The notes under the pieces: model-generated
Told to the model about the DNA's origin: nothing
The model's database searches: none
Seen by the model: the letters and a program-made list of their open reading frames with translations, nothing else
Shown: one piece after another, positions 2,304 to 10,529 of the stretch
How positions within the stretch are numbered: the stretch's first letter is position 1
Layout of the letters: every line of letters begins with the position of its first letter
Translations under genes and position numbers: made by a program
IMG/VR virus record: IMGVR_UViG_644736359_000006
Direction: 5' to 3' (one strand)
DNA length: 31,135 bases
Source of the DNA: a virus
Taxonomy: Duplodnaviria; Heunggongvirae; Uroviricota; Caudoviricetes

Positions 2304-2618
2304 TATAATTAACTTACTTTTTTATCATTTTCCACTTTAACAACATTTTGCTCCACTTTTCCACGACCAAACAACTTGAAATCTGGTTAAAATAACACGC
2401 AACACTATTCTTCTTCCTTGAGTCCGCCTGGAACTCGAAAAACAAACCGAGTTAAAGCCATTTTTCACAAAATCGATTTTGGGTCTCACCAAAATTACGG
2501 GGTTGCATACGCATTCGTTTATTTTCGAACGTGTACATACAAATATGCACAAAAATAATCAAAATTATTTTCTGAGATGCATTATGATATGAACACCAAT
2601 TTCGTATAGAGTCTCACT

Positions 2619-3209
2619 ATGTCTCGAATTTTTGCTTACTGTCGGATATCAACGCTGGATCAGACCACCGAAAATCAACGCCGGGAAATCGAAAGTGCAG
2701 GTTTTAAAATCAAACCTCAGCAAATAATCGAAGAACACATTAGCGGCTCAGCAGCAACCAGTGAGCGTCCTGGTTTTAACCGGTTGCTTGCTCGCCTGAA
2801 ATGTGGTGATCAATTGATTGTGACAAAATTGGATCGCCTTGGTTGTAATGCAATGGATATCAGGAAAACAGTGGAACAACTGACCGAAACAGGTATCAGA
2901 GTGCATTGCTTAGCATTGGGGGGCATTGACCTGACCAGTCCAACAGGAAAAATGATGATGCAAGTAATTTCAGCAGTCGCTGAATTTGAACGAGACCTTT
3001 TACTTGAACGCACTCATTCCGGGATAGTAAGAGCCCGGGGCGCAGGGAAACGTTTTGGTCGACCACCTGTGTTAAATGAAGAACAGAAACAGGTGGTATT
3101 CGAACGGATTAAGTCAGGTGTAAGTATAAGTGCCATTGCCCGGGAATTCAAAACCTCGCGGCAAACCATTTTAAGAGCCAAAGCAAAACTTCAGACACCT
3201 GACATATAA
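2619..3209 (+). CDS. pinQ: Serine recombinase / DNA invertase Pin
   Basis: 196-aa [23 protein letters not shown]... with resolvase-type catalytic N-domain and C-terminal HTH; sits between ydfK and the tail-fibre genes as in Qin. Confidence 0.85.
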
Positions 3210-3436
3210 AAAATAATCTCGGTGTGAGATGCTTTACGTCTTCCAAGCCCCCTTCCTTGCCGTAAATGGAAAGATACATCTAATTATAGAATTTATATGT
3301 TTTACCCTACGGCAGTGCTGGCCATTCAATATCCTGTGCAGTTGACGTATCAACACGGTTCAGCAACACCCGATACTTTTTCCTGGCTTCCAGCAACGGG
3401 GTTTCTTCCTCCGTTGCATATACAGCTCACCTTTTT

Positions 3437-3730
3437 TCACCCACGATTAACCAACAGCCAGATCAGCAGACACGCCACCACCGGCACAGCAAAATCCATC
3501 AGGCTTGCCACATCCCAAACACGCGGATCAAAACCGCCCCACCACGGCATGTTAATCCGCTTGCCATGCCCGAACATTTCAATCCAGCGATATTCTGCCT
3601 GGGTGTGTTCACGCGCAATGAAGAACGTACAACCAGCTATCGCCCCATAAGCCCAGTTTCCGGTAAAAAGACCAACCAGTGTCTGCGCAGCCACAGCACA
3701 AAGCGCATGAAGAAAAGGTGTTATATCCAT
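3437..3730 (-). CDS. Hypothetical small membrane protein
   Basis: 97-aa ORF with two hydrophobic segments; AGGAGG Shine-Dalgarno directly upstream of ATG at 3730; family not recognised. Confidence 0.45.
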   Translation of the reverse strand: MDITPFLHALCAVAAQTLVGLFTGNWAYGAIAGCTFFIAREHTQAEYRWIEMFGHGKRINMPWWGGFDPRVWDVASLMDFAVPVVACLLIWLLVNRG

Positions 3731-3740
3731 TACTCCTCCT

Positions 3741-4445
3741 TTATCTAATATCGCTTCGGGAAGTTAATAACAACTTTAATTCTGACTCAAGTTCATCAAC
3801 TCTTTCAGTCAGTTTCTGGATATGGTGAATCAGTGGAACAACCAGACGTTCGTACATTACACCTTCGGCAACAAGGCCATTGCTGGAAATAGCTTCAGGA
3901 GCATCATCTTCGTTAGCTGGTCGCCAGTGTACAAACTGAGGAGCAATTTCTCCTACTTCCTCGGCAATCAATCCGTAGAATCCCCAGTCACGCCTGTCAT
4001 TTTCGCATTGCGACCTGTACCACACAGGGCGCATCCTGAAAATGAGATCGGCGTGCTCTGAATCTATTGTCTCTACTGAATGTTTATAGCGGATAGACGA
4101 TGTTGACCGCAGCACAGACGAAATTGCAGGGTCAGGATTAAGATAAAGGTTTGCCGCCGCTGTAGTCGTGGCCAAATTCCATAAATAAAACGCTTCACGA
4201 CCTGTCAGTGGATAAAAATCTCCGCCATAACGACCACTTTCCAGATCGTTCACTTCCACTTTGTTTTTCAGCTTATTATCAACTTCAGTTTTTGTGTATC
4301 TGGAGCTGATATCCTGCTTTGCACTGGTCATCTCAGTCTGAAGCGTTGATACTTTTCTGCTAATTGATGAAATATCTTCCTTAGCTTTACTGACATCCCC
4401 CTTTAGCTTGGTGATATCTCCTGGAATTACTGTCGATGTAGCCAT
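3741..4445 (-). CDS. Tail-fibre-associated protein with C-terminal intramolecular-chaperone (peptidase S74-like) domain
   Basis: 234-aa ORF; N-terminal coiled-coil-like K/S/T-rich stretch; C-terminal motif SSIRYKHSVE...GLIAEEVGEIAPQFV...GVMYERLVVPLIHHIQKL resembles the endosialidase/tail-spike chaperone domain. Confidence 0.45.
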   Translation of the reverse strand: MATSTVIPGDITKLKGDVSKAKEDISSISRKVSTLQTEMTSAKQDISSRYTKTEVDNKLKNKVEVNDLESGRYGGDFYPLTGREAFYLWNLATTTAAANLYLNPDPAISSVLRSTSSIRYKHSVETIDSEHADLIFRMRPVWYRSQCENDRRDWGFYGLIAEEVGEIAPQFVHWRPANEDDAPEAISSNGLVAEGVMYERLVVPLIHHIQKLTERVDELESELKLLLTSRSDIR

Positions 4446-4454
4446 TTTCCTGCC

Positions 4455-4736
4455 TCACATCCAGCCACGAAGTTGATGCTCAACAACAACCGCGTATTTA
4501 TCGAATATTGACGATTTTTTTGCATCATTAATGATGCGCACGTTTACAAAATATCCGTCTTCCTTAACACATACCGGCTCGCCATCTTCAGTAAGTTCTC
4601 CGGTTTCTTTGTACACGTTACCTATCACGTCAATAAGAATATCATCCTGCATCGACTCGTCATCATAATAGCCAGCACTCTTCATAAAGGCCGAAAAGTC
4701 GGCCTTGTCTGTGAATTTGATAATTAAATCTCGCAT
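4455..4736 (-). CDS. Hypothetical protein translationally coupled to stf
   Basis: 93-aa ORF whose ATG overlaps the stf stop (TAATG); acidic, no recognisable motif. Confidence 0.4.
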   Translation of the reverse strand: MRDLIIKFTDKADFSAFMKSAGYYDDESMQDDILIDVIGNVYKETGELTEDGEPVCVKEDGYFVNVRIINDAKKSSIFDKYAVVVEHQLRGWM

Positions 4737-7114
4737 TATATTATCTCTCCCATTTGCGCATCGGTTAATTCTTTATGCCATATTCTAAAATTCCTGATAT
4801 AACCAAATAAATGACGTAAGCCGGCTGTAGTCTGGCCTCCAATCCTTATACCTGTAGCACCACTAACACTCTTCCACGTTGTTGATGCTGGTGTTGATAA
4901 AACCCCATTGCAGCCAGCCTGAAACTTGCCATCGCTTTTTATTCTATATACAGCGATAATCTTTCTTGGGTAATTTCCAGGTGGAAATGATATTGGATTA
5001 CCAAATTGAACATATGGAGTTCCTACACTACCTGCTGTATTTCTGAATGCAAAAACAAAAGCGTCGTCTTTTGTTTTAAATCCTGTTATATCATAAATTC
5101 TAGGCGCGGAATTTGGTGCTATAGACCAATTTTTATTCACTTCAACCATGCAGGTTAAAGGTTTGCTGGCCATGTTATTTTTACAAGGCAATGTAACAAT
5201 ATCGCTTGCTCGCGTTGATGCAACTGTATCGGAAATGATAAAAGATGATGCGCATGAGCCGCCTTCAAATTGTGGTGTCGTAACATCCAAATATTCCCCG
5301 CCCAAATAAGTTCCAGGTGAAACAGGTGGAGCAATTTGGATCTGAGAGCCAACCATATTATCAATAGCTTCAGATTGATATGTAACCTCGAAATAAATCC
5401 ATCCATTAGATTCTTTCTCCGCTCGGGCGGTTATTCTTGCAGCCCCTCCTCCCGTTTTCCTAATGGACATATCTGTTATATTAAGATATGCATCTGCCAG
5501 ATAAAAATATGCGGACCCGTCATATCTTTCAAATCTTATACGACATTGTATATTAGCACTATCGCTTTTTACACGACATGATGTTGTAACATACTTTTCA
5601 GTTCCAGTAACATCGACACCTCTTCCTCCTGAAACCGCAGCGATATTCATTGTCGTATTTGTCCCAATTTTTTCGTCCTTTATTTGAAACCGCCCATAAG
5701 TAAAGCCAAACTCATCAACACCACTTTCTGTTATAGTTACACTTGTTGTAGCTCCCCACTTAGATGGCGTAAGTGAATTAAGATGATAGTTGGTTCTTTG
5801 TCCTTCAATCAGCAAACCTTCTCGTTCAAATCGCGGTTCGTCAACTTCAGCAACGGTTAATACTCCTGATTTATTAATGTATGTTGCACCTGATGCGCGT
5901 TTGAAGCTAACAACCTTATCGGATGGCATTTTAATAACATCATCACCTACAGTTATTTGCTTATAACCAGGCGAAAAGCCAGCAAGCATATCCAGTGAAT
6001 CGTTAAACGGTATCCACACATCGGGAAGCGGCTGCAAAACTTGTTTATACGGCTCCGCAGCCTGGCTTGCATACTCTCTGGCTGCGTCTTCACTTGCTTT
6101 TGCAGCCGTCTGGCTTGCAGCGGATGCTTTCGCCGAGTTAGCCGCCGCAGTCTCGCTCGCCTTTGCGTTGGTTTCACTGGTTTTTGCAGCTTTTTGACTG
6201 TTGGCTGATGCAGTGGCAGAAGAAGCCGCCGCACTTGCAGAACCAGCTGCGGCACTCTCGCTTTGGGCCGCTGCATCCTGACTGTTTTTCGCCGCAGTTT
6301 CGCTGGCTTTGGCATTCGTTTCGCTGGTCTTCGCTGCCGTCTGGCTGGACTTTGCGTTAGTTTCGCTCGTCTTCGCTGCTTTCTGGCTGTTAGCTGCAGC
6401 AGTTGCTGATCCAGCTGCTGAAGTCGCAGAACCGGCTGCCGCACTCTCGCTTTCGGCTGCTGCAGCCTGACTGCTTTTCGCCGCAGTTTCACTGGTTTTG
6501 GCATTCGTTTCGCTTGTTTTCGCTGCCGCCTGGCTGGACTTTGCGTTGGTTTCGCTCGTCTTTGCTGCTGTCTCGCTATTTTTCGCGTTGTTTTCTGATT
6601 TTTTAGCTGCTGTCGCGGAGTTTGCCGATGCAGTCTGCGAGGCCGCTGCCGCCTGTGCGCTGTTAGCTGCATGCGTTTCTGAGGTTTTCGCCGCGTTCTT
6701 CGATGATGCCGCTGCTGTTTCTGATTTCTTTGCTGCCGCTGCGCTCTGAGAGGCGGCTTCAGCGTTGCGTGCTGCTTCTTCCACCATTGCCTCAAAACGA
6801 CGCAATGCCTCCGGCATGACATCATCTTCCGTCATGGCACCGAGAAAATCATTCAGCGTACCAGGTCTGGAACCTTCATAGACGGTAATGGTTCCGGCAT
6901 GTGAAGGCGGAAAACCTTCAACCAGCAGGGTGACGCTGTACTGGCCATACTCGACATCCATGCTGTAACGCCCGGCTTCATCCGGATTTTCAGAGGCTAC
7001 CGTGTTCACCAGTACCGTGGTGCTGTTACGCTTTGCCTTCAGTTGAATAGTGCAGTTCTGTATTGGTTTTCCCGCACCATCTTTCAGCACACCTGAGATT
7101 TTTACTGCTGCCAT
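4736..7114 (-). CDS. stf: Side tail fibre protein, lambda Stf-like N-terminus, Ala/Ser/Thr-rich repeat shaft, LamG/ConA-like C-terminal domain
   Basis: N-terminus MAAVKISGVLKDGAGKPIQNCTIQLKA... matches lambda Stf; GGAG RBS before ATG 7114 (ORF track starts at upstream GTG 7120); C-terminal ...LFGYIRNFRIWHKELTDAQMGEII resembles the LamG jelly-roll end motif. Confidence 0.85.
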   Translation of the reverse strand: MAAVKISGVLKDGAGKPIQNCTIQLKAKRNSTTVLVNTVASENPDEAGRYSMDVEYGQYSVTLLVEGFPPSHAGTITVYEGSRPGTLNDFLGAMTEDDVMPEALRRFEAMVEEAARNAEAASQSAAAAKKSETAAASSKNAAKTSETHAANSAQAAAASQTASANSATAAKKSENNAKNSETAAKTSETNAKSSQAAAKTSETNAKTSETAAKSSQAAAAESESAAAGSATSAAGSATAAANSQKAAKTSETNAKSSQTAAKTSETNAKASETAAKNSQDAAAQSESAAAGSASAAASSATASANSQKAAKTSETNAKASETAAANSAKASAASQTAAKASEDAAREYASQAAEPYKQVLQPLPDVWIPFNDSLDMLAGFSPGYKQITVGDDVIKMPSDKVVSFKRASGATYINKSGVLTVAEVDEPRFEREGLLIEGQRTNYHLNSLTPSKWGATTSVTITESGVDEFGFTYGRFQIKDEKIGTNTTMNIAAVSGGRGVDVTGTEKYVTTSCRVKSDSANIQCRIRFERYDGSAYFYLADAYLNITDMSIRKTGGGAARITARAEKESNGWIYFEVTYQSEAIDNMVGSQIQIAPPVSPGTYLGGEYLDVTTPQFEGGSCASSFIISDTVASTRASDIVTLPCKNNMASKPLTCMVEVNKNWSIAPNSAPRIYDITGFKTKDDAFVFAFRNTAGSVGTPYVQFGNPISFPPGNYPRKIIAVYRIKSDGKFQAGCNGVLSTPASTTWKSVSGATGIRIGGQTTAGLRHLFGYIRNFRIWHKELTDAQMGEII
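6120..6600. repeat. Tandem 189-bp (63-codon) repeats inside stf
   Basis: Unit beginning gcactctcgcttt at 6252 recurs at 6441 (period 189 bp, ~90% identity) with a degenerate copy upstream; encodes repeated ...SESAAAGSA...ANSQKAAKTSETNAK... blocks; explains the shadow ORFs on both strands. Confidence 0.7.
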
Positions 7115-7125
7115 ATCCACTCCAC

Positions 7126-7151
7126 AAAAAAGCCCGCCTGAACCGGCGGGC
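7126..7151 (-). terminator. Rho-independent terminator after lom
   Basis: Stem gcccgcc/ggcgggc (7132-7138, 7145-7151) followed on the minus strand by a run of six U. Confidence 0.55.
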
Positions 7152-7178
7152 TGTCATAACACTGTGTTACCTGGCTAA

Positions 7179-7778
7179 TCAGAATTTATAACCGACACCC
7201 ACGATGAAACCGTCAGTGCGCCAGTCACCACTGCCGGAACCTTCATAAGCAAGGTCAATGGCCACGGATTCGGTCGGGTTAAACTGCACGCCAGCCCCCC
7301 ACGCCAGAGACGTGTTGCTGTGGCGACCGTCATCACTTCCGGTCAGCACATCGTGCGTTTTCCCCTTGTTGTCAGTTACGCGGAGATAATCCCCGGAGAA
7401 GGTCGACACACGGCTGTAAGCCATACCCGCCATCGCATACGCGCTGAACCATTCATTCACGCGCACAGACGGCCCCGCCATCACGCTGAACCAGCGGTTA
7501 CGCACGGAATCTTCATGCCAGCGGGTATCGCTGTAATGCGTTTTTTGCTCATCTTTGGCATTGGCATAACTGAATGACGTCACCAGCCCCAGCGTGTCCG
7601 TAAACTCATAACGGTATTTCACGTTAATCCCGTTCAGATCATCGCTGCCGGGAACGTTCGTCGAGGCATGAAGATACCCCGCGCTCAGCGTGGACTGATG
7701 TTCAGACGCCCATGCAGGCGCACCGGATACGGCCAGACAAATGGCTACGGACAAAATGGCGGCATAAAGTTTACGCAT
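7179..7778 (-). CDS. lom: Lom/Ail/OmpX-family outer-membrane protein
   Basis: 199-aa ORF with signal peptide, alternating beta-strand pattern and C-terminal ...GVGYKF; located between J and stf as in lambda; GAGAGG RBS. Confidence 0.8.
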   Translation of the reverse strand: MRKLYAAILSVAICLAVSGAPAWASEHQSTLSAGYLHASTNVPGSDDLNGINVKYRYEFTDTLGLVTSFSYANAKDEQKTHYSDTRWHEDSVRNRWFSVMAGPSVRVNEWFSAYAMAGMAYSRVSTFSGDYLRVTDNKGKTHDVLTGSDDGRHSNTSLAWGAGVQFNPTESVAIDLAYEGSGSGDWRTDGFIVGVGYKF

Positions 7779-7802
7779 AATTACCTCTCGCTTTTCTGCA
7801 AT

Positions 7803-7826
7803 AAAAAAGGCGTCATTTCTGACGCC
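7803..7826 (-). terminator. Rho-independent terminator after J fragment
   Basis: Stem ggcgtca/tgacgcc with tttc loop, followed on the minus strand by UUUUUU. Confidence 0.55.
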
Positions 7827-7844
7827 CGTTATGGGTTATAAAAT

Positions 7845-9148
7845 TCAGCTAATCATGATGCCTGCAGTGGCTTTCTTCATCACCACAACCAGCAAATCGC
7901 TGATACTTGCTGTGGGATACCAGCCATTTACCAGCCATGCCGATACAGAAAATTCCAGTGTCATTACACCACTGCCTGCAGGCATATCAATAACACCCGT
8001 ATATATCAGCGTATTATCCAGAGCCGTTCGGTTATAAATTTCAGCACCGTTTTTTCGTACTATCAGACGGCATGAGGAGTAGATATCAGTATGATCTTGC
8101 TCATGTTTAGCGCCACTGAATGCCACCGCCGGAATAACAATTTGCCGGTCAAACGGCTGATCGTCATAAACCCTGACGGTAATGGTCCCTGATGGCCACC
8201 GCTCCGGTGCACGGGAGTCCCGGGGGAAAGCTTTGCCCACTGTTTTAACGAGATCGCCTTCAATCTGGTTCGCGGACAGTTTTCCCAGAACCCGGCAGTT
8301 CTCGTTAATCGTGACGTTGTTGAGCGTCCCGGAGTTCGCATTCACGTTACCGCTAATATCGGCATTTTTCGCCGTCAGCCGCCCGTCCGGTGTCAGGGAA
8401 AATGCCGGAGGATTACCGCCGCTGGTAATGGTGGGAGCCGTCAGATATTTCAGGAACACTTCGTTCATGAATATCTGATCGCCCTGACCAACAAACATCG
8501 GCTTTGTGTTGCCATTCGCAGGATTAATCATCGCAATCCTGTCCGCCGCCAGCAGCACCTGACTCTGCATACCGTCAGGGGTATTCTCAATACCGGCACC
8601 AATACCCGCGATATAAAGGCGTCCGTCCTGCATCTGCTGCAGCTTCACAGCCCACATGCTGTTCAGGTTATTATTTGTATCAACCTGAACCTTCTGTATC
8701 TGCTGGATTGCCGCACTCTGGTCTTCCAGTTTCTTATTGACGGTCTGCGTGATTTCATTACTGACATCCGTGATGGACGTTCTGATTTCCGCCAGGTCAG
8801 GCGCAAGCTGACCGTTATCAATCTGCGTCCACAACTCCTGAGCCAGATGGGTTTTCCCTATCTCTCCTTTGAAAAAATTCAGATAGCCGGATGCATCATC
8901 ACTCGGCTGGCCAACAGCCTCCACGAATGCCGATTTGCCAACGGTGTTCACACTGCGGATGTAAAAATAATAATCATGGCCCGGTTTGATATTGATACTG
9001 GCGGCTATCCAGTACAGCGCCGTGCCAAGATAGCGTGCTGTGGTTTCAACCTGCCTGATATCCGCAATCCGCTTTTCCGAGAACCAGAACTCAAACTGTA
9101 CCGTCGGATCATAAACCGCAAGATGCGGCGTGGCGGTTATCTGAAAAT
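7845..9148 (-). pseudogene. Host-specificity protein J (tail tip), C-terminal ~434 codons only, 5' end removed by IS3
   Basis: Long ORF runs without a native start straight into the IS3 left end at 9149; position upstream of lom matches lambda J. Confidence 0.7.
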
Positions 9149-9204
9149 TGATCTTACCCAGCAATAGTGGACACGCGGCTAAGTGAGTAAACTCTCAGTC
9201 AGAG

Positions 9205-9513
9205 GTGACTCACATGACAAAAACAGTATCAACCAGTAAAAAACCCCGTAAACAGCATTCGCCTGAATTTCGCAGTGAAGCCCTGAAGCTTGCTGAACGC
9301 ATCGGTGTTACTGCCGCAGCCCGTGAACTCAGCCTGTATGAATCACAGCTCTACAACTGGCGCAGTAAACAGCAAAATCAGCAGACGTCTTCTGAACGTG
9401 AACTGGAGATGTCTACCGAGATTGCACGTCTCAAACGCCAGCTGGCAGAACGGGATGAAGAGCTGGCTATCCTCCAAAAGGCCGCGACATACTTCGCGAA
9501 GCGCCTGAAATGA
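9205..9513 (+). CDS. insE: IS3 OrfA (InsE), HTH transposase component
   Basis: ORF ...[31 protein letters not shown]... with C-terminal leucine-zipper-like region; first ATG at 9205, conventional start a few codons later. Confidence 0.85.
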
Positions 9514-10376
9514 AGTATGTCTTTATTGAAAAACATCAGGCTGAGTTCAGCATCAAAGCAATGTGCCGCGTGCTCCGGGTGGCCCGCAGCGGCTGGTATA
9601 CGTGGTGTCAGCGGCGGACAAGGATAAGCACGCGTCAGCAGTTCCGCCAACACTGCGACAGCGTTGTCCTCGCGGCTTTTACCCGGTCAAAACAGCGTTA
9701 CGGTGCCCCACGCCTGACGGATGAACTGCGTGCTCAGGGTTACCCCTTTAACGTAAAAACCGTGGCGGCAAGCCTGCGCCGTCAGGGACTGAGGGCAAAG
9801 GCCTCCCGGAAGTTCAGCCCGGTCAGCTACCGCGCACACGGCCTGCCTGTGTCAGAAAATCTGTTGGAGCAGGATTTTTACGCCAGTGGCCCGAACCAGA
9901 AGTGGGCAGGAGACATCACGTACTTACGTACAGATGAAGGCTGGCTGTATCTGGCAGTGGTCATTGACCTGTGGTCACGTGCCGTTATTGGCTGGTCAAT
10001 GTCGCCACGCATGACGGCGCAACTGGCCTGCGATGCCCTGCAGATGGCGCTGTGGCGGCGTAAGAGGCCCCGGAACGTTATCGTTCACACGGACCGTGGA
10101 GGCCAGTACTGTTCAGCAGATTATCAGGCGCAACTGAAGCGGCATAATCTGCGTGGAAGTATGAGCGCAAAAGGTTGCTGCTACGATAATGCCTGCGTGG
10201 AAAGCTTCTTTCATTCGCTGAAAGTGGAATGTATCCATGGAGAACACTTTATCAGCCGGGAAATAATGCGGGCAACGGTGTTTAATTATATCGAATGTGA
10301 TTACAATCGGTGGCGGCGGCACAGTTGGTGTGGCGGCCTCAGTCCGGAACAATTTGAAAACAAGAACCTCGCTTAG
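9510..10376 (+). CDS. insF: IS3 OrfB (InsF), DDE transposase catalytic domain, in -1 frame relative to orfA
   Basis: 288-aa ORF overlapping the orfA stop (ATGA) in the -1 frame; DDE-type core ...HTDRGGQY... Confidence 0.85.
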
Positions 10377-10529
10377 GCCTGTGTCCATATTACGTGGGTA
10401 GGATCAATTCACCTAAATACGAGGCATTGCTGTAGTTGAATTGCATTGCTGTATTAGCCTGACAGTGACAGAATACGATATTGACTCTGTCACTTGTGAA
10501 ATGGTCAGAATGGTTAGCAGTTATGGTGA

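Follow-up and report, generated by a model that had tools for sequence, protein, structure and literature searches.

What is a gene for a small membrane protein doing at the very end of a lambdoid tail-fibre cluster, and does it belong to the late operon of the phage or is it a passenger that changes the surface of the lysogen? The question is raised by an open reading frame (ORF) of 97 codons on the minus strand of the Caudoviricetes record IMGVR_UViG_644736359_000006 of IMG/VR, whose whole stretch of 31,135 nucleotides is called the window below. A preliminary description made from the letters of the window alone had presented the ORF as a membrane protein of no recognisable family and, in view of its place, as a possible moron affecting the cell surface through exclusion or serum resistance. 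We find that the ORF is a genuine, selected, protein-coding gene; that its relatives lie directly 3' of whatever type of fibre or spike gene is present, in phages of gamma-, beta-, alpha- and delta-proteobacteria; and that, as far as the layout of the sequence indicates, it is the integrated last gene of the late operon's tail-fibre run and not an autonomous moron. A role at the cell envelope or in exclusion is our leading guess.

Genes beside receptor-binding proteins decide who infects whom, and they are relevant to the engineering of phage host range. The present family occurs in a third of complete Escherichia coli genomes, in phage 21, in uncultured phages numbering in the hundreds and, as a fixed gene, in the chromosomes of several genera, and despite this spread it has no Pfam entry, no recognisably related solved structure and no literature that we could find. 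Already catalogued are PHROG 1443, hypothetical proteins and the phage 21 gene CPT_21_24; new here are the three-helix model, the invariant motif, the cross-phylum positional rule that holds regardless of receptor-binding type, and the double life of the family as a chromosomal singleton. Together, the positional rule and the invariant polar motif offer a cheap and well-defined experimental target for deciding function.

The gene and its product

The ORF is intact, with an ATG start and all 97 codons, and the strong ribosome-binding site ascribed to it is in place: read along the minus strand, the stop codon of the preceding fibre gene (TAA, 3743-3741) is followed by AGGAGG (3740-3735), AGTA and the ATG (3730-3728), with the ribosome-binding site lying inside the 10-nt gap between fibre stop and start codon. 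That the product belongs to no recognisable family is correct for Pfam and NCBIfam, neither of which holds a match to the 97-amino-acid (97-aa) protein, and for the defence-system hidden Markov models of PADLOC (0 families at E<=1), but not for the phage families of PHROG, where it matches PHROG 1443, a catalogued family with no assigned function, along its whole length (residues 1-96 aligned to positions 1-96 of the 97 in the profile; E=2.7e-58). Scanning 71 diverse members against Pfam at E<=10 returned scattered noise only (e.g., PhoR, VirB3), a sequence-profile search of the PDB gave no match, and comparison of the fold with solved structures gave no informative one. Homology searching extended the family to hundreds or thousands of clusters at 90% identity, namely 579 by a single-sequence search and 2215 by a profile search, which appear under several names: RefSeq lists the protein of the window as the hypothetical protein WP_000355603.1, UniRef uses "Ybl63", and the phage 21 orthologue CPT_21_24 is labelled "putative membrane protein".

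Of 5426 complete E. coli genomes, 1899 carry the gene (median 2 copies, maximum 7), which also has orthologues in the plaque-forming phages 21 and HannyBb. Across 41 distinct alleles, all of them from Escherichia, the ratio of nonsynonymous to synonymous substitution rates (dN/dS) is 0.13, indicating purifying selection, and the variable sites fall on the three codon positions as 12/7/36, so that 36 of the 55 are third positions. Two of the grounds on which the preliminary description would have dismissed the ORF do not apply: far from lacking conservation, it combines this low dN/dS with wide occurrence across phages, and it is no piece of a longer gene, since an exhaustive profile search brought up only short proteins that stand alone (431 representatives at 50% identity, all of ~60-146 aa).

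Hydropathy and AlphaFold modelling agree with the proposed assignment of the ~10.8 kDa product to the membrane, but the two transmembrane helices first proposed become three. Hydropathy resolves three hydrophobic stretches, and the AlphaFold model built on a 29-sequence alignment places helices at residues 4-23, 26-52 and 74-96 with a predicted local distance difference test score (pLDDT) of 91.7; a distant homologue modelled on a disjoint alignment of 33 sequences adopts the same architecture (pLDDT 97.1). The lower count is also found in the GenBank note on the phage 21 orthologue, where TMHMM reports "2 TMDs". According to the models, helices 1 and 2 form a hairpin around a conserved Gly-Asn/Asp turn, and TMHMM would thus merge these two helices.

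Conservation was assessed on the 71 diverse members, which are only 28-63% identical to the protein of the window. Invariant or nearly so are H8, R40, E41, Q44, A45, E46, W72 and P83, and D79, R48, R58 and an MPWWGGF stretch are strongly conserved. H8 lies on helix 1, R40, E41, Q44 and E46 at the exit of helix 2, and D79 and P83 on helix 3, helices 2 and 3 being connected by a conserved aromatic loop, R58..MPWWGGF..W72; judged from the secondary structure, a helical hairpin would bring H8 to the height of R40/E41, and with D79 close to where helix 3 begins the polar residues would cluster at one membrane face. Lysine plus arginine average 5.7 in the N-terminal tail and loop 2 combined, as against 0.58 in loop 1 and the C-terminal tail, and by the positive-inside rule the conserved loop and its polar residues are therefore predicted to be cytoplasmic, with the C-terminus outside. 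Three homologues (P0145, P0195 and P0258) carry an insertion of ~45 residues, rich in charged and aromatic residues, between helix 2 and MPWWGGF, which indicates that the loop tolerates an extra soluble module. A lipoprotein was considered and rejected, as there is no lipobox of the form [LVI][ASTVI][GAS]C: the residues before C11 are H-A-L, and C11 itself is not conserved, being I, V or L in most family members.

Genomic context across phages

In 81 viral loci from Escherichia the gene order is lom, stf, p93, an optional second fibre gene and the 97-aa gene. The optional fibre is of an S74 type of 227-234 aa, of a 345-346-aa type, or missing; p93 lies between stf and the 97-aa gene in 79 of the 81 loci, the other two (L015 and L068) being without the stf-p93 run; and in nearly all of the loci 10-13 nt or 36-39 nt separate the 97-aa gene from the one upstream. 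Identity across these loci is 94-100% for the 97-aa protein, 37-100% for the stf product and 29-100% for that of p93, and downstream there are at least eight different contexts, including tfa'-pin and sitDCBA. Set between variable fibres and a variable downstream region, the constant 97-aa gene thus closes a conserved block of the late operon without tracking fibre specificity. The junction of the 97-aa gene with tfa'-pin recurs in >25 viral loci, among them that of phage HannyBb.

Phage 21 shows the same arrangement with different pieces. Its orthologue is >90% identical and follows J, stf and a 92-aa gene, the upstream S74 fibre cassette being absent and sitDCBA replacing tfa'-pin; this convergent iron/manganese transporter operon starts 92 nt past the orthologue's stop codon (L239, OL657228, region 6386-9835), so that the variable cargo starts exactly at the 3' end of the gene. 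In the virulent siphophage HC6 (L157, 3965-4120), a decayed and unannotated 51-aa remnant of the family stands directly after an S74-type fibre gene, which suggests joint acquisition of fibre end and gene, with later decay of the gene.

Outside Escherichia, prophages of Comamonas, Acidovorax, Chelativorans, Halomonas, Desulfovibrio, Leclercia and others carry a homologue directly behind the last fibre gene; in the first five of these genera the stop and start codons overlap or the two genes abut. Some of these prophages retain the same LamG-type fibre and a p93-like gene, and in the Comamonas prophage a p93 homologue (PHROG 18574) occupies the place of p93 (L094 5714-6001); the proteins of the family from Escherichia and Comamonas phages are 55-65% identical. 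A set of 80 environmental viral contigs with distant homologues extends the pattern to other receptor-binding proteins: in 74 of these loci the domains found in the upstream neighbour were Pect-lyase_RHGA_epim (50), Beta_helix (12), End_N_terminal (8), Peptidase_S74 (5) and Peptidase_G2 (2).

Such a companionship might point to a fibre or spike assembly factor, that is, a membrane-anchored docking or maturation aid for folding, trimerisation and joining to the tail, standing in the genomic place of a Tfa-type chaperone. The gene does occupy the usual position of a tail-fibre-assembly gene, with a tfa remnant just downstream in the window, its coupling to the fibre genes is tight in many phages, and its conserved loop is predicted to be cytoplasmic, where fibres assemble. 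We nevertheless regard this role as very unlikely, given that the gene is invariant beside at least four unrelated fibre classes (LamG-type, S74, pectate-lyase beta-helix and endosialidase-type), several of which bring their own intramolecular chaperone; that no similarity to Tfa/Caudo_TAP was found with Pfam or NCBIfam, the 97-aa protein being hydrophobic and Tfa-type proteins soluble; that chromosomal orthologues lie far from any phage gene; and that HC6 keeps its S74 fibre though the gene has decayed.

The downstream side raises another alternative. After the homologue in beta-proteobacterial prophages come genes for a holin (PHROG 920), for an endolysin (PHROG 7) and for an Rz-like spanin (PHROG 6197), and in the environmental loci the next gene belongs to PHROG 1544 (25 loci) or to the holin family PHROG 2359 (18 loci), with overlaps that are usually of 4 or 13 nt. 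PHROG 1544 proteins are of ~160 aa with two C-terminal hydrophobic helices (L171 5270-5752; L155 2993-3496) and may be a holin-like partner. The family could accordingly be an accessory of the lysis cassette, whether an antiholin, a timing regulator or an extra holin-like component, whose proximity to the fibres would merely reflect a "tail then lysis" order of the late operon, and the size and three hydrophobic helices shared with class I holins speak for it as well. Loci in which the two linkages come apart mostly side with the fibres. In the Chelativorans prophage (L109) and a near-identical contig (L179) the fibre-homologue pair lies inside the tail module with no lysis gene nearby, the homologues of the Halomonas and Desulfovibrio prophages likewise lie between tail genes away from any lysis gene, several environmental contigs have further tail genes downstream, and the remnant in HC6 likewise adjoins a fibre gene. 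In lambdoid phages, too, the 97-aa gene is found next to the fibres, distally in the late operon, and not beside the late-gene activator Q, which in the lambda genome is adjoined by the S-R-Rz lysis cassette, far upstream of the fibres. The one case that favours lysis linkage is Aeromonas phage 62AhydR11PP, where the gene is co-oriented with PHROG 3108 and PHROG 1544 and the tailspike gene is on the opposite strand; PHROG 1544 stands there in a gene order opposite to that of the environmental loci, and homologues from Aeromonas phages also match PHROG 1443. Further points count against the accessory: every cassette observed has a holin of its own; holins are without a 35-residue conserved polar loop and usually have a charged C-terminal tail, whereas the tail here is of 3-5 residues with a mean of 0.5 lysine plus arginine; and stable, single-copy chromosomal orthologues are hard to square with a lethal protein that makes membrane lesions. 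On balance, we hold a part in lysis to be unlikely, though it deserves to be kept in mind.

The late operon and the locus in E. coli B

Morons of the lambda type are autonomous, each having a promoter and a terminator to itself, and in this respect the framing given in the preliminary description is not supported. Between 3731 and ~4700 on the minus strand a consensus scan, which is weak evidence, found no sigma-70-like site, the only one, itself weak, being at 4768-4740, before p93; and no terminator-like hairpin was found on that strand downstream of 3437, the only two in 2500-8000 being those that flank lom (7131-7152 and 7808-7827), which thereby shows the layout of an autonomous moron. 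The sole moron-like trait of the 97-aa gene is its G+C content at third codon positions (GC3) of 0.51, compared with 0.39 in the S74 fibre gene, 0.43 in p93 and 0.37 in stf, a step that marks a mosaic boundary. In many unrelated phages the homologue overlaps the stop codon of the fibre or spike gene before it, the start codon of the gene after it, or both of these. The 10-nt spacing from the fibre gene, taken with the frequent stop/start overlaps with structural genes elsewhere, indicates translational coupling, and position is conserved across proteobacterial classes.

A classical lysogenic-conversion moron, transcribed independently in the lysogen and benefiting the host through serum resistance, surface alteration or exclusion, is consequently a distinctly unlikely description. 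Some observations do suit it, since the gene sits at the border where variable cargo begins, differs from the upstream fibre genes in GC3, and is kept intact in defective prophages such as that of E. coli B, in addition to reaching several copies in one genome. They are outweighed in our assessment by the want of a promoter-like or terminator-like site such as lom has, by the coupling to structural genes, by conservation over four proteobacterial classes that is deeper than in lineage-specific morons, and by the absence of a lipobox and of any similarity to Lom/Ail or Bor; nothing specific supports serum resistance. The Tai/Ati tail-assembly-interference system, a prophage moron system tied to tail proteins, was also considered and rejected, as it lies upstream of the packaging module and is unrelated.

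The window itself holds a defective Qin-like lambdoid prophage of E. coli B, adjoining ydfJ, in a region that is 100% identical to NZ_CP115178.1. An IS3 element truncates J, and the genes for the head, the tail shaft and lysis have been lost (window ~7845-10400, the rest to ~24000), with the Q antiterminator, dicB, dicC, hokD, rem and a frameshifted integrase still present. The minus strand reads J remnant, lom, stf, p93, S74 fibre and 97-aa ORF, followed by a tfa remnant and, on the plus strand, pinQ (Table 1), so that the described position between the fibre genes (3741-7120) and the pin gene is correct, with the addition that the tfa remnant intervenes.

Table 1. Features of the window around the 97-aa gene
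Feature	Position	Strand	Remarks
pinQ	2619-3209	+	beyond tfa remnant
3' remnant of tail-fibre-assembly (tfa) gene	3308-3418	-	PGAP pseudogene annotation
97-aa ORF, coding sequence of three-helix (predicted) membrane protein	3437-3730	-	PHROG 1443; WP_000355603.1
Shine-Dalgarno AGGAGG	3735-3740	-	4 nt before ATG; abuts fibre TAA (3741-3743)
234-aa tail fibre, C-terminal Peptidase_S74 intramolecular chaperone domain	3741-4445	-	PF13884 E=3.9e-06; PHROG tail-fibre matches
p93, acidic, 93 aa	4455-4736	-	PHROG 1361 (function not annotated); start overlaps stf stop
stf, side tail fibre, 794 aa	4736-7120	-	prophage tail-fibre N-terminal domain PF08400 E=1e-66
lom	7179-7778	-	3.5 kb from 97-aa gene

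The first gene of the stf-p93-(fibre)-97-aa gene run, stf, has a weak Laminin_G_3-like match at its C-terminus (E=5.9e-05, under the Pfam cut-off) and Ala/Ser/Thr-rich repeats (about 5950-6830) that produce many long spurious ORFs in other frames; it is a single intact ORF of 794 codons in the window, whereas the RefSeq record of strain B splits it into several coding sequences and pseudogenes. The product of p93 may be a fibre chaperone. At the other end, the tfa remnant forms the downstream edge of the conserved block, past which the context differs between prophages. An invertible Pin segment containing the 97-aa gene was considered and rejected, no crossover-site pair or suitable inverted repeats being found, and for want of an inverted pair of crossover sites pinQ seems to be an orphan invertase that has lost its invertible segment. 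Since IS3 and large deletions interrupt the late operon in strain B, local expression of the 97-aa gene is doubtful, and in E. coli B it is probably a silent or weakly expressed relic.

Possible role and comparison with known systems

The family also leads a life outside phages. In a sample of one-genome-per-species contigs with 67 loci, phage-like neighbours were seen at only ~1/4 to 1/3; at the rest the gene stands singly in an ordinary genomic setting. The Aeromonas copy has a pirin gene on one side and, on the other, a convergent RIO1-like kinase gene together with two lipid A acyltransferase-like genes, in synteny over five species (in A. rivipollensis, L004 8473-11645); in Leclercia it stands beside a MetE-like gene and a urea transporter gene; and in sphingomonads and other alphaproteobacteria it stands beside genes such as those of LigA, FtsZ and PNPase, with no recurring partner. 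Chromosomal singletons without a recurring partner indicate that the protein works without a dedicated partner gene, and the occurrence of the family in sphingomonads and similar bacteria implies a target shared by bacteria whose outer surfaces differ greatly. The LpxL-like genes near the Aeromonas copy give a weak hint of envelope lipids, to which the sphingomonad copies lend no support. Lipid A as the common target was rejected, the family being common in sphingomonads, the Aeromonas genes being convergent and the other contexts housekeeping ones.

Taking these observations together, we tentatively rank first an envelope-directed function in masking or exclusion that would be independent of fibre type; by analogy with known systems it is possible, though short of probable. 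The protein would insert in the inner membrane with its N-terminus and conserved loop in the cytoplasm and would act alone on a broadly conserved membrane component, candidates being a conserved protein of the inner membrane or an envelope glycan precursor linked to polyprenyl phosphate. Synthesised late in infection along with the fibres, or in lysogens through read-through, the protein would reshape the envelope of the producing cell, so that sibling and competing phages would adsorb to or enter this cell and its debris less well, a form of exclusion or receptor masking irrespective of fibre specificity. The ranking follows from the fact that the gene travels with receptor-binding genes of every structural class, from its apparent action alone and from ample precedent: envelope-modifying or receptor-blocking genes beside receptor-binding genes include T5 llp, phi80 cor, P22 gtrABC, Sf6 oac, epsilon15 gene 21 and D3 iap.

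Several points weigh against it. No homology was found to any exclusion, seroconversion or defence protein, and no literature on WP_000355603, Ybl63 or phrog_1443, the announcement of the phage 21 genome not discussing CPT_21_24. Exclusion proteins are usually fast-evolving and narrow, and this family is unusually deeply conserved, as its identity between Escherichia and Comamonas phages shows; the syntenic Aeromonas copies look more like a housekeeping function than an arms-race gene. Sphingomonads are without classical lipopolysaccharide and carry the family, so that lipid A cannot be the common target. Expression that is late only would be too late to exclude superinfecting DNA, and the abutment on a holin cassette in many phages makes a part in lysis conceivable. 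Finally, the predicted topology depends on one rule, and the TMHMM result in the phage 21 record differs from it.

A bolder version, to which we give about the same small chance as to the lysis accessory, is that the family is a hitherto unrecognised companion of nearly all receptor-binding proteins in proteobacterial phages, a minimal enzyme or inhibitor of three helices in the inner membrane that would act on a conserved intermediate of envelope biogenesis and silence surface-glycan receptors or, alternatively, gate the holin. If true, such a companion would be a new functional class of late phage gene, borrowed from chromosomes or lent to them. The remaining probability we leave to explanations not yet imagined.

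How the family compares with characterised systems can be set out group by group. Class I holins such as lambda S105 are likewise of ~100 aa with three hydrophobic helices, and the family often adjoins holin and endolysin genes; it is unlike S105 in its long conserved polar and aromatic loop, in lacking a charged C-terminal tail, in the presence of a separate holin and in having chromosomal orthologues, and it is neither encoded with an endolysin in the E. coli B prophage, which has none, nor the sole holin candidate where cassettes occur. The superinfection-exclusion proteins T4 Imm, P22 SieA and HK97 gp15 are likewise small phage inner-membrane proteins that act alone. SieA is the superinfection-exclusion protein of P22 at the inner membrane (PMC10883804). 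The three differ from the 97-aa protein in being narrowly distributed and expressed early or from the prophage, whereas the 97-aa gene belongs to the late operon and is conserved across proteobacterial classes, and there is no sequence relationship.

The small hydrophobic seroconversion factors D3 Iap and epsilon15 gp21, and with them the modules P22 gtrABC and Sf6 oac, are inner-membrane functions encoded directly after a glycan-binding spike and act on surface-glycan assembly, a setting that the family shares to the extent that 50 of 74 upstream neighbours are pectate-lyase-type spikes. Seroconversion factors are serotype-specific and are paired with a gene for a polymerase, a glycosyltransferase or an acetyltransferase, of which there is none beside the family in the window or the related loci; its neighbours there are fibres, p93, invertase, holins or unrelated cargo, and it is conserved across hosts with unrelated glycans.

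T5 Llp and the Cor proteins of phi80, N15 and T1 are, like the product of the 97-aa gene, small envelope proteins encoded beside receptor-binding genes. They are outer-membrane lipoproteins with a signal peptide and a lipobox that block FhuA and travel with the matching receptor-binding protein, whereas the 97-aa protein has no lipobox, is predicted to be a polytopic protein of the inner membrane, does not co-vary with the fibre and has no similarity to them in sequence or fold. A shared logic, the protection of the producing cell or lysogen and of the progeny, is plausible by analogy. The 97-aa protein is thus best placed among the small envelope proteins encoded beside receptor-binding genes, and in kind it is not surprising.

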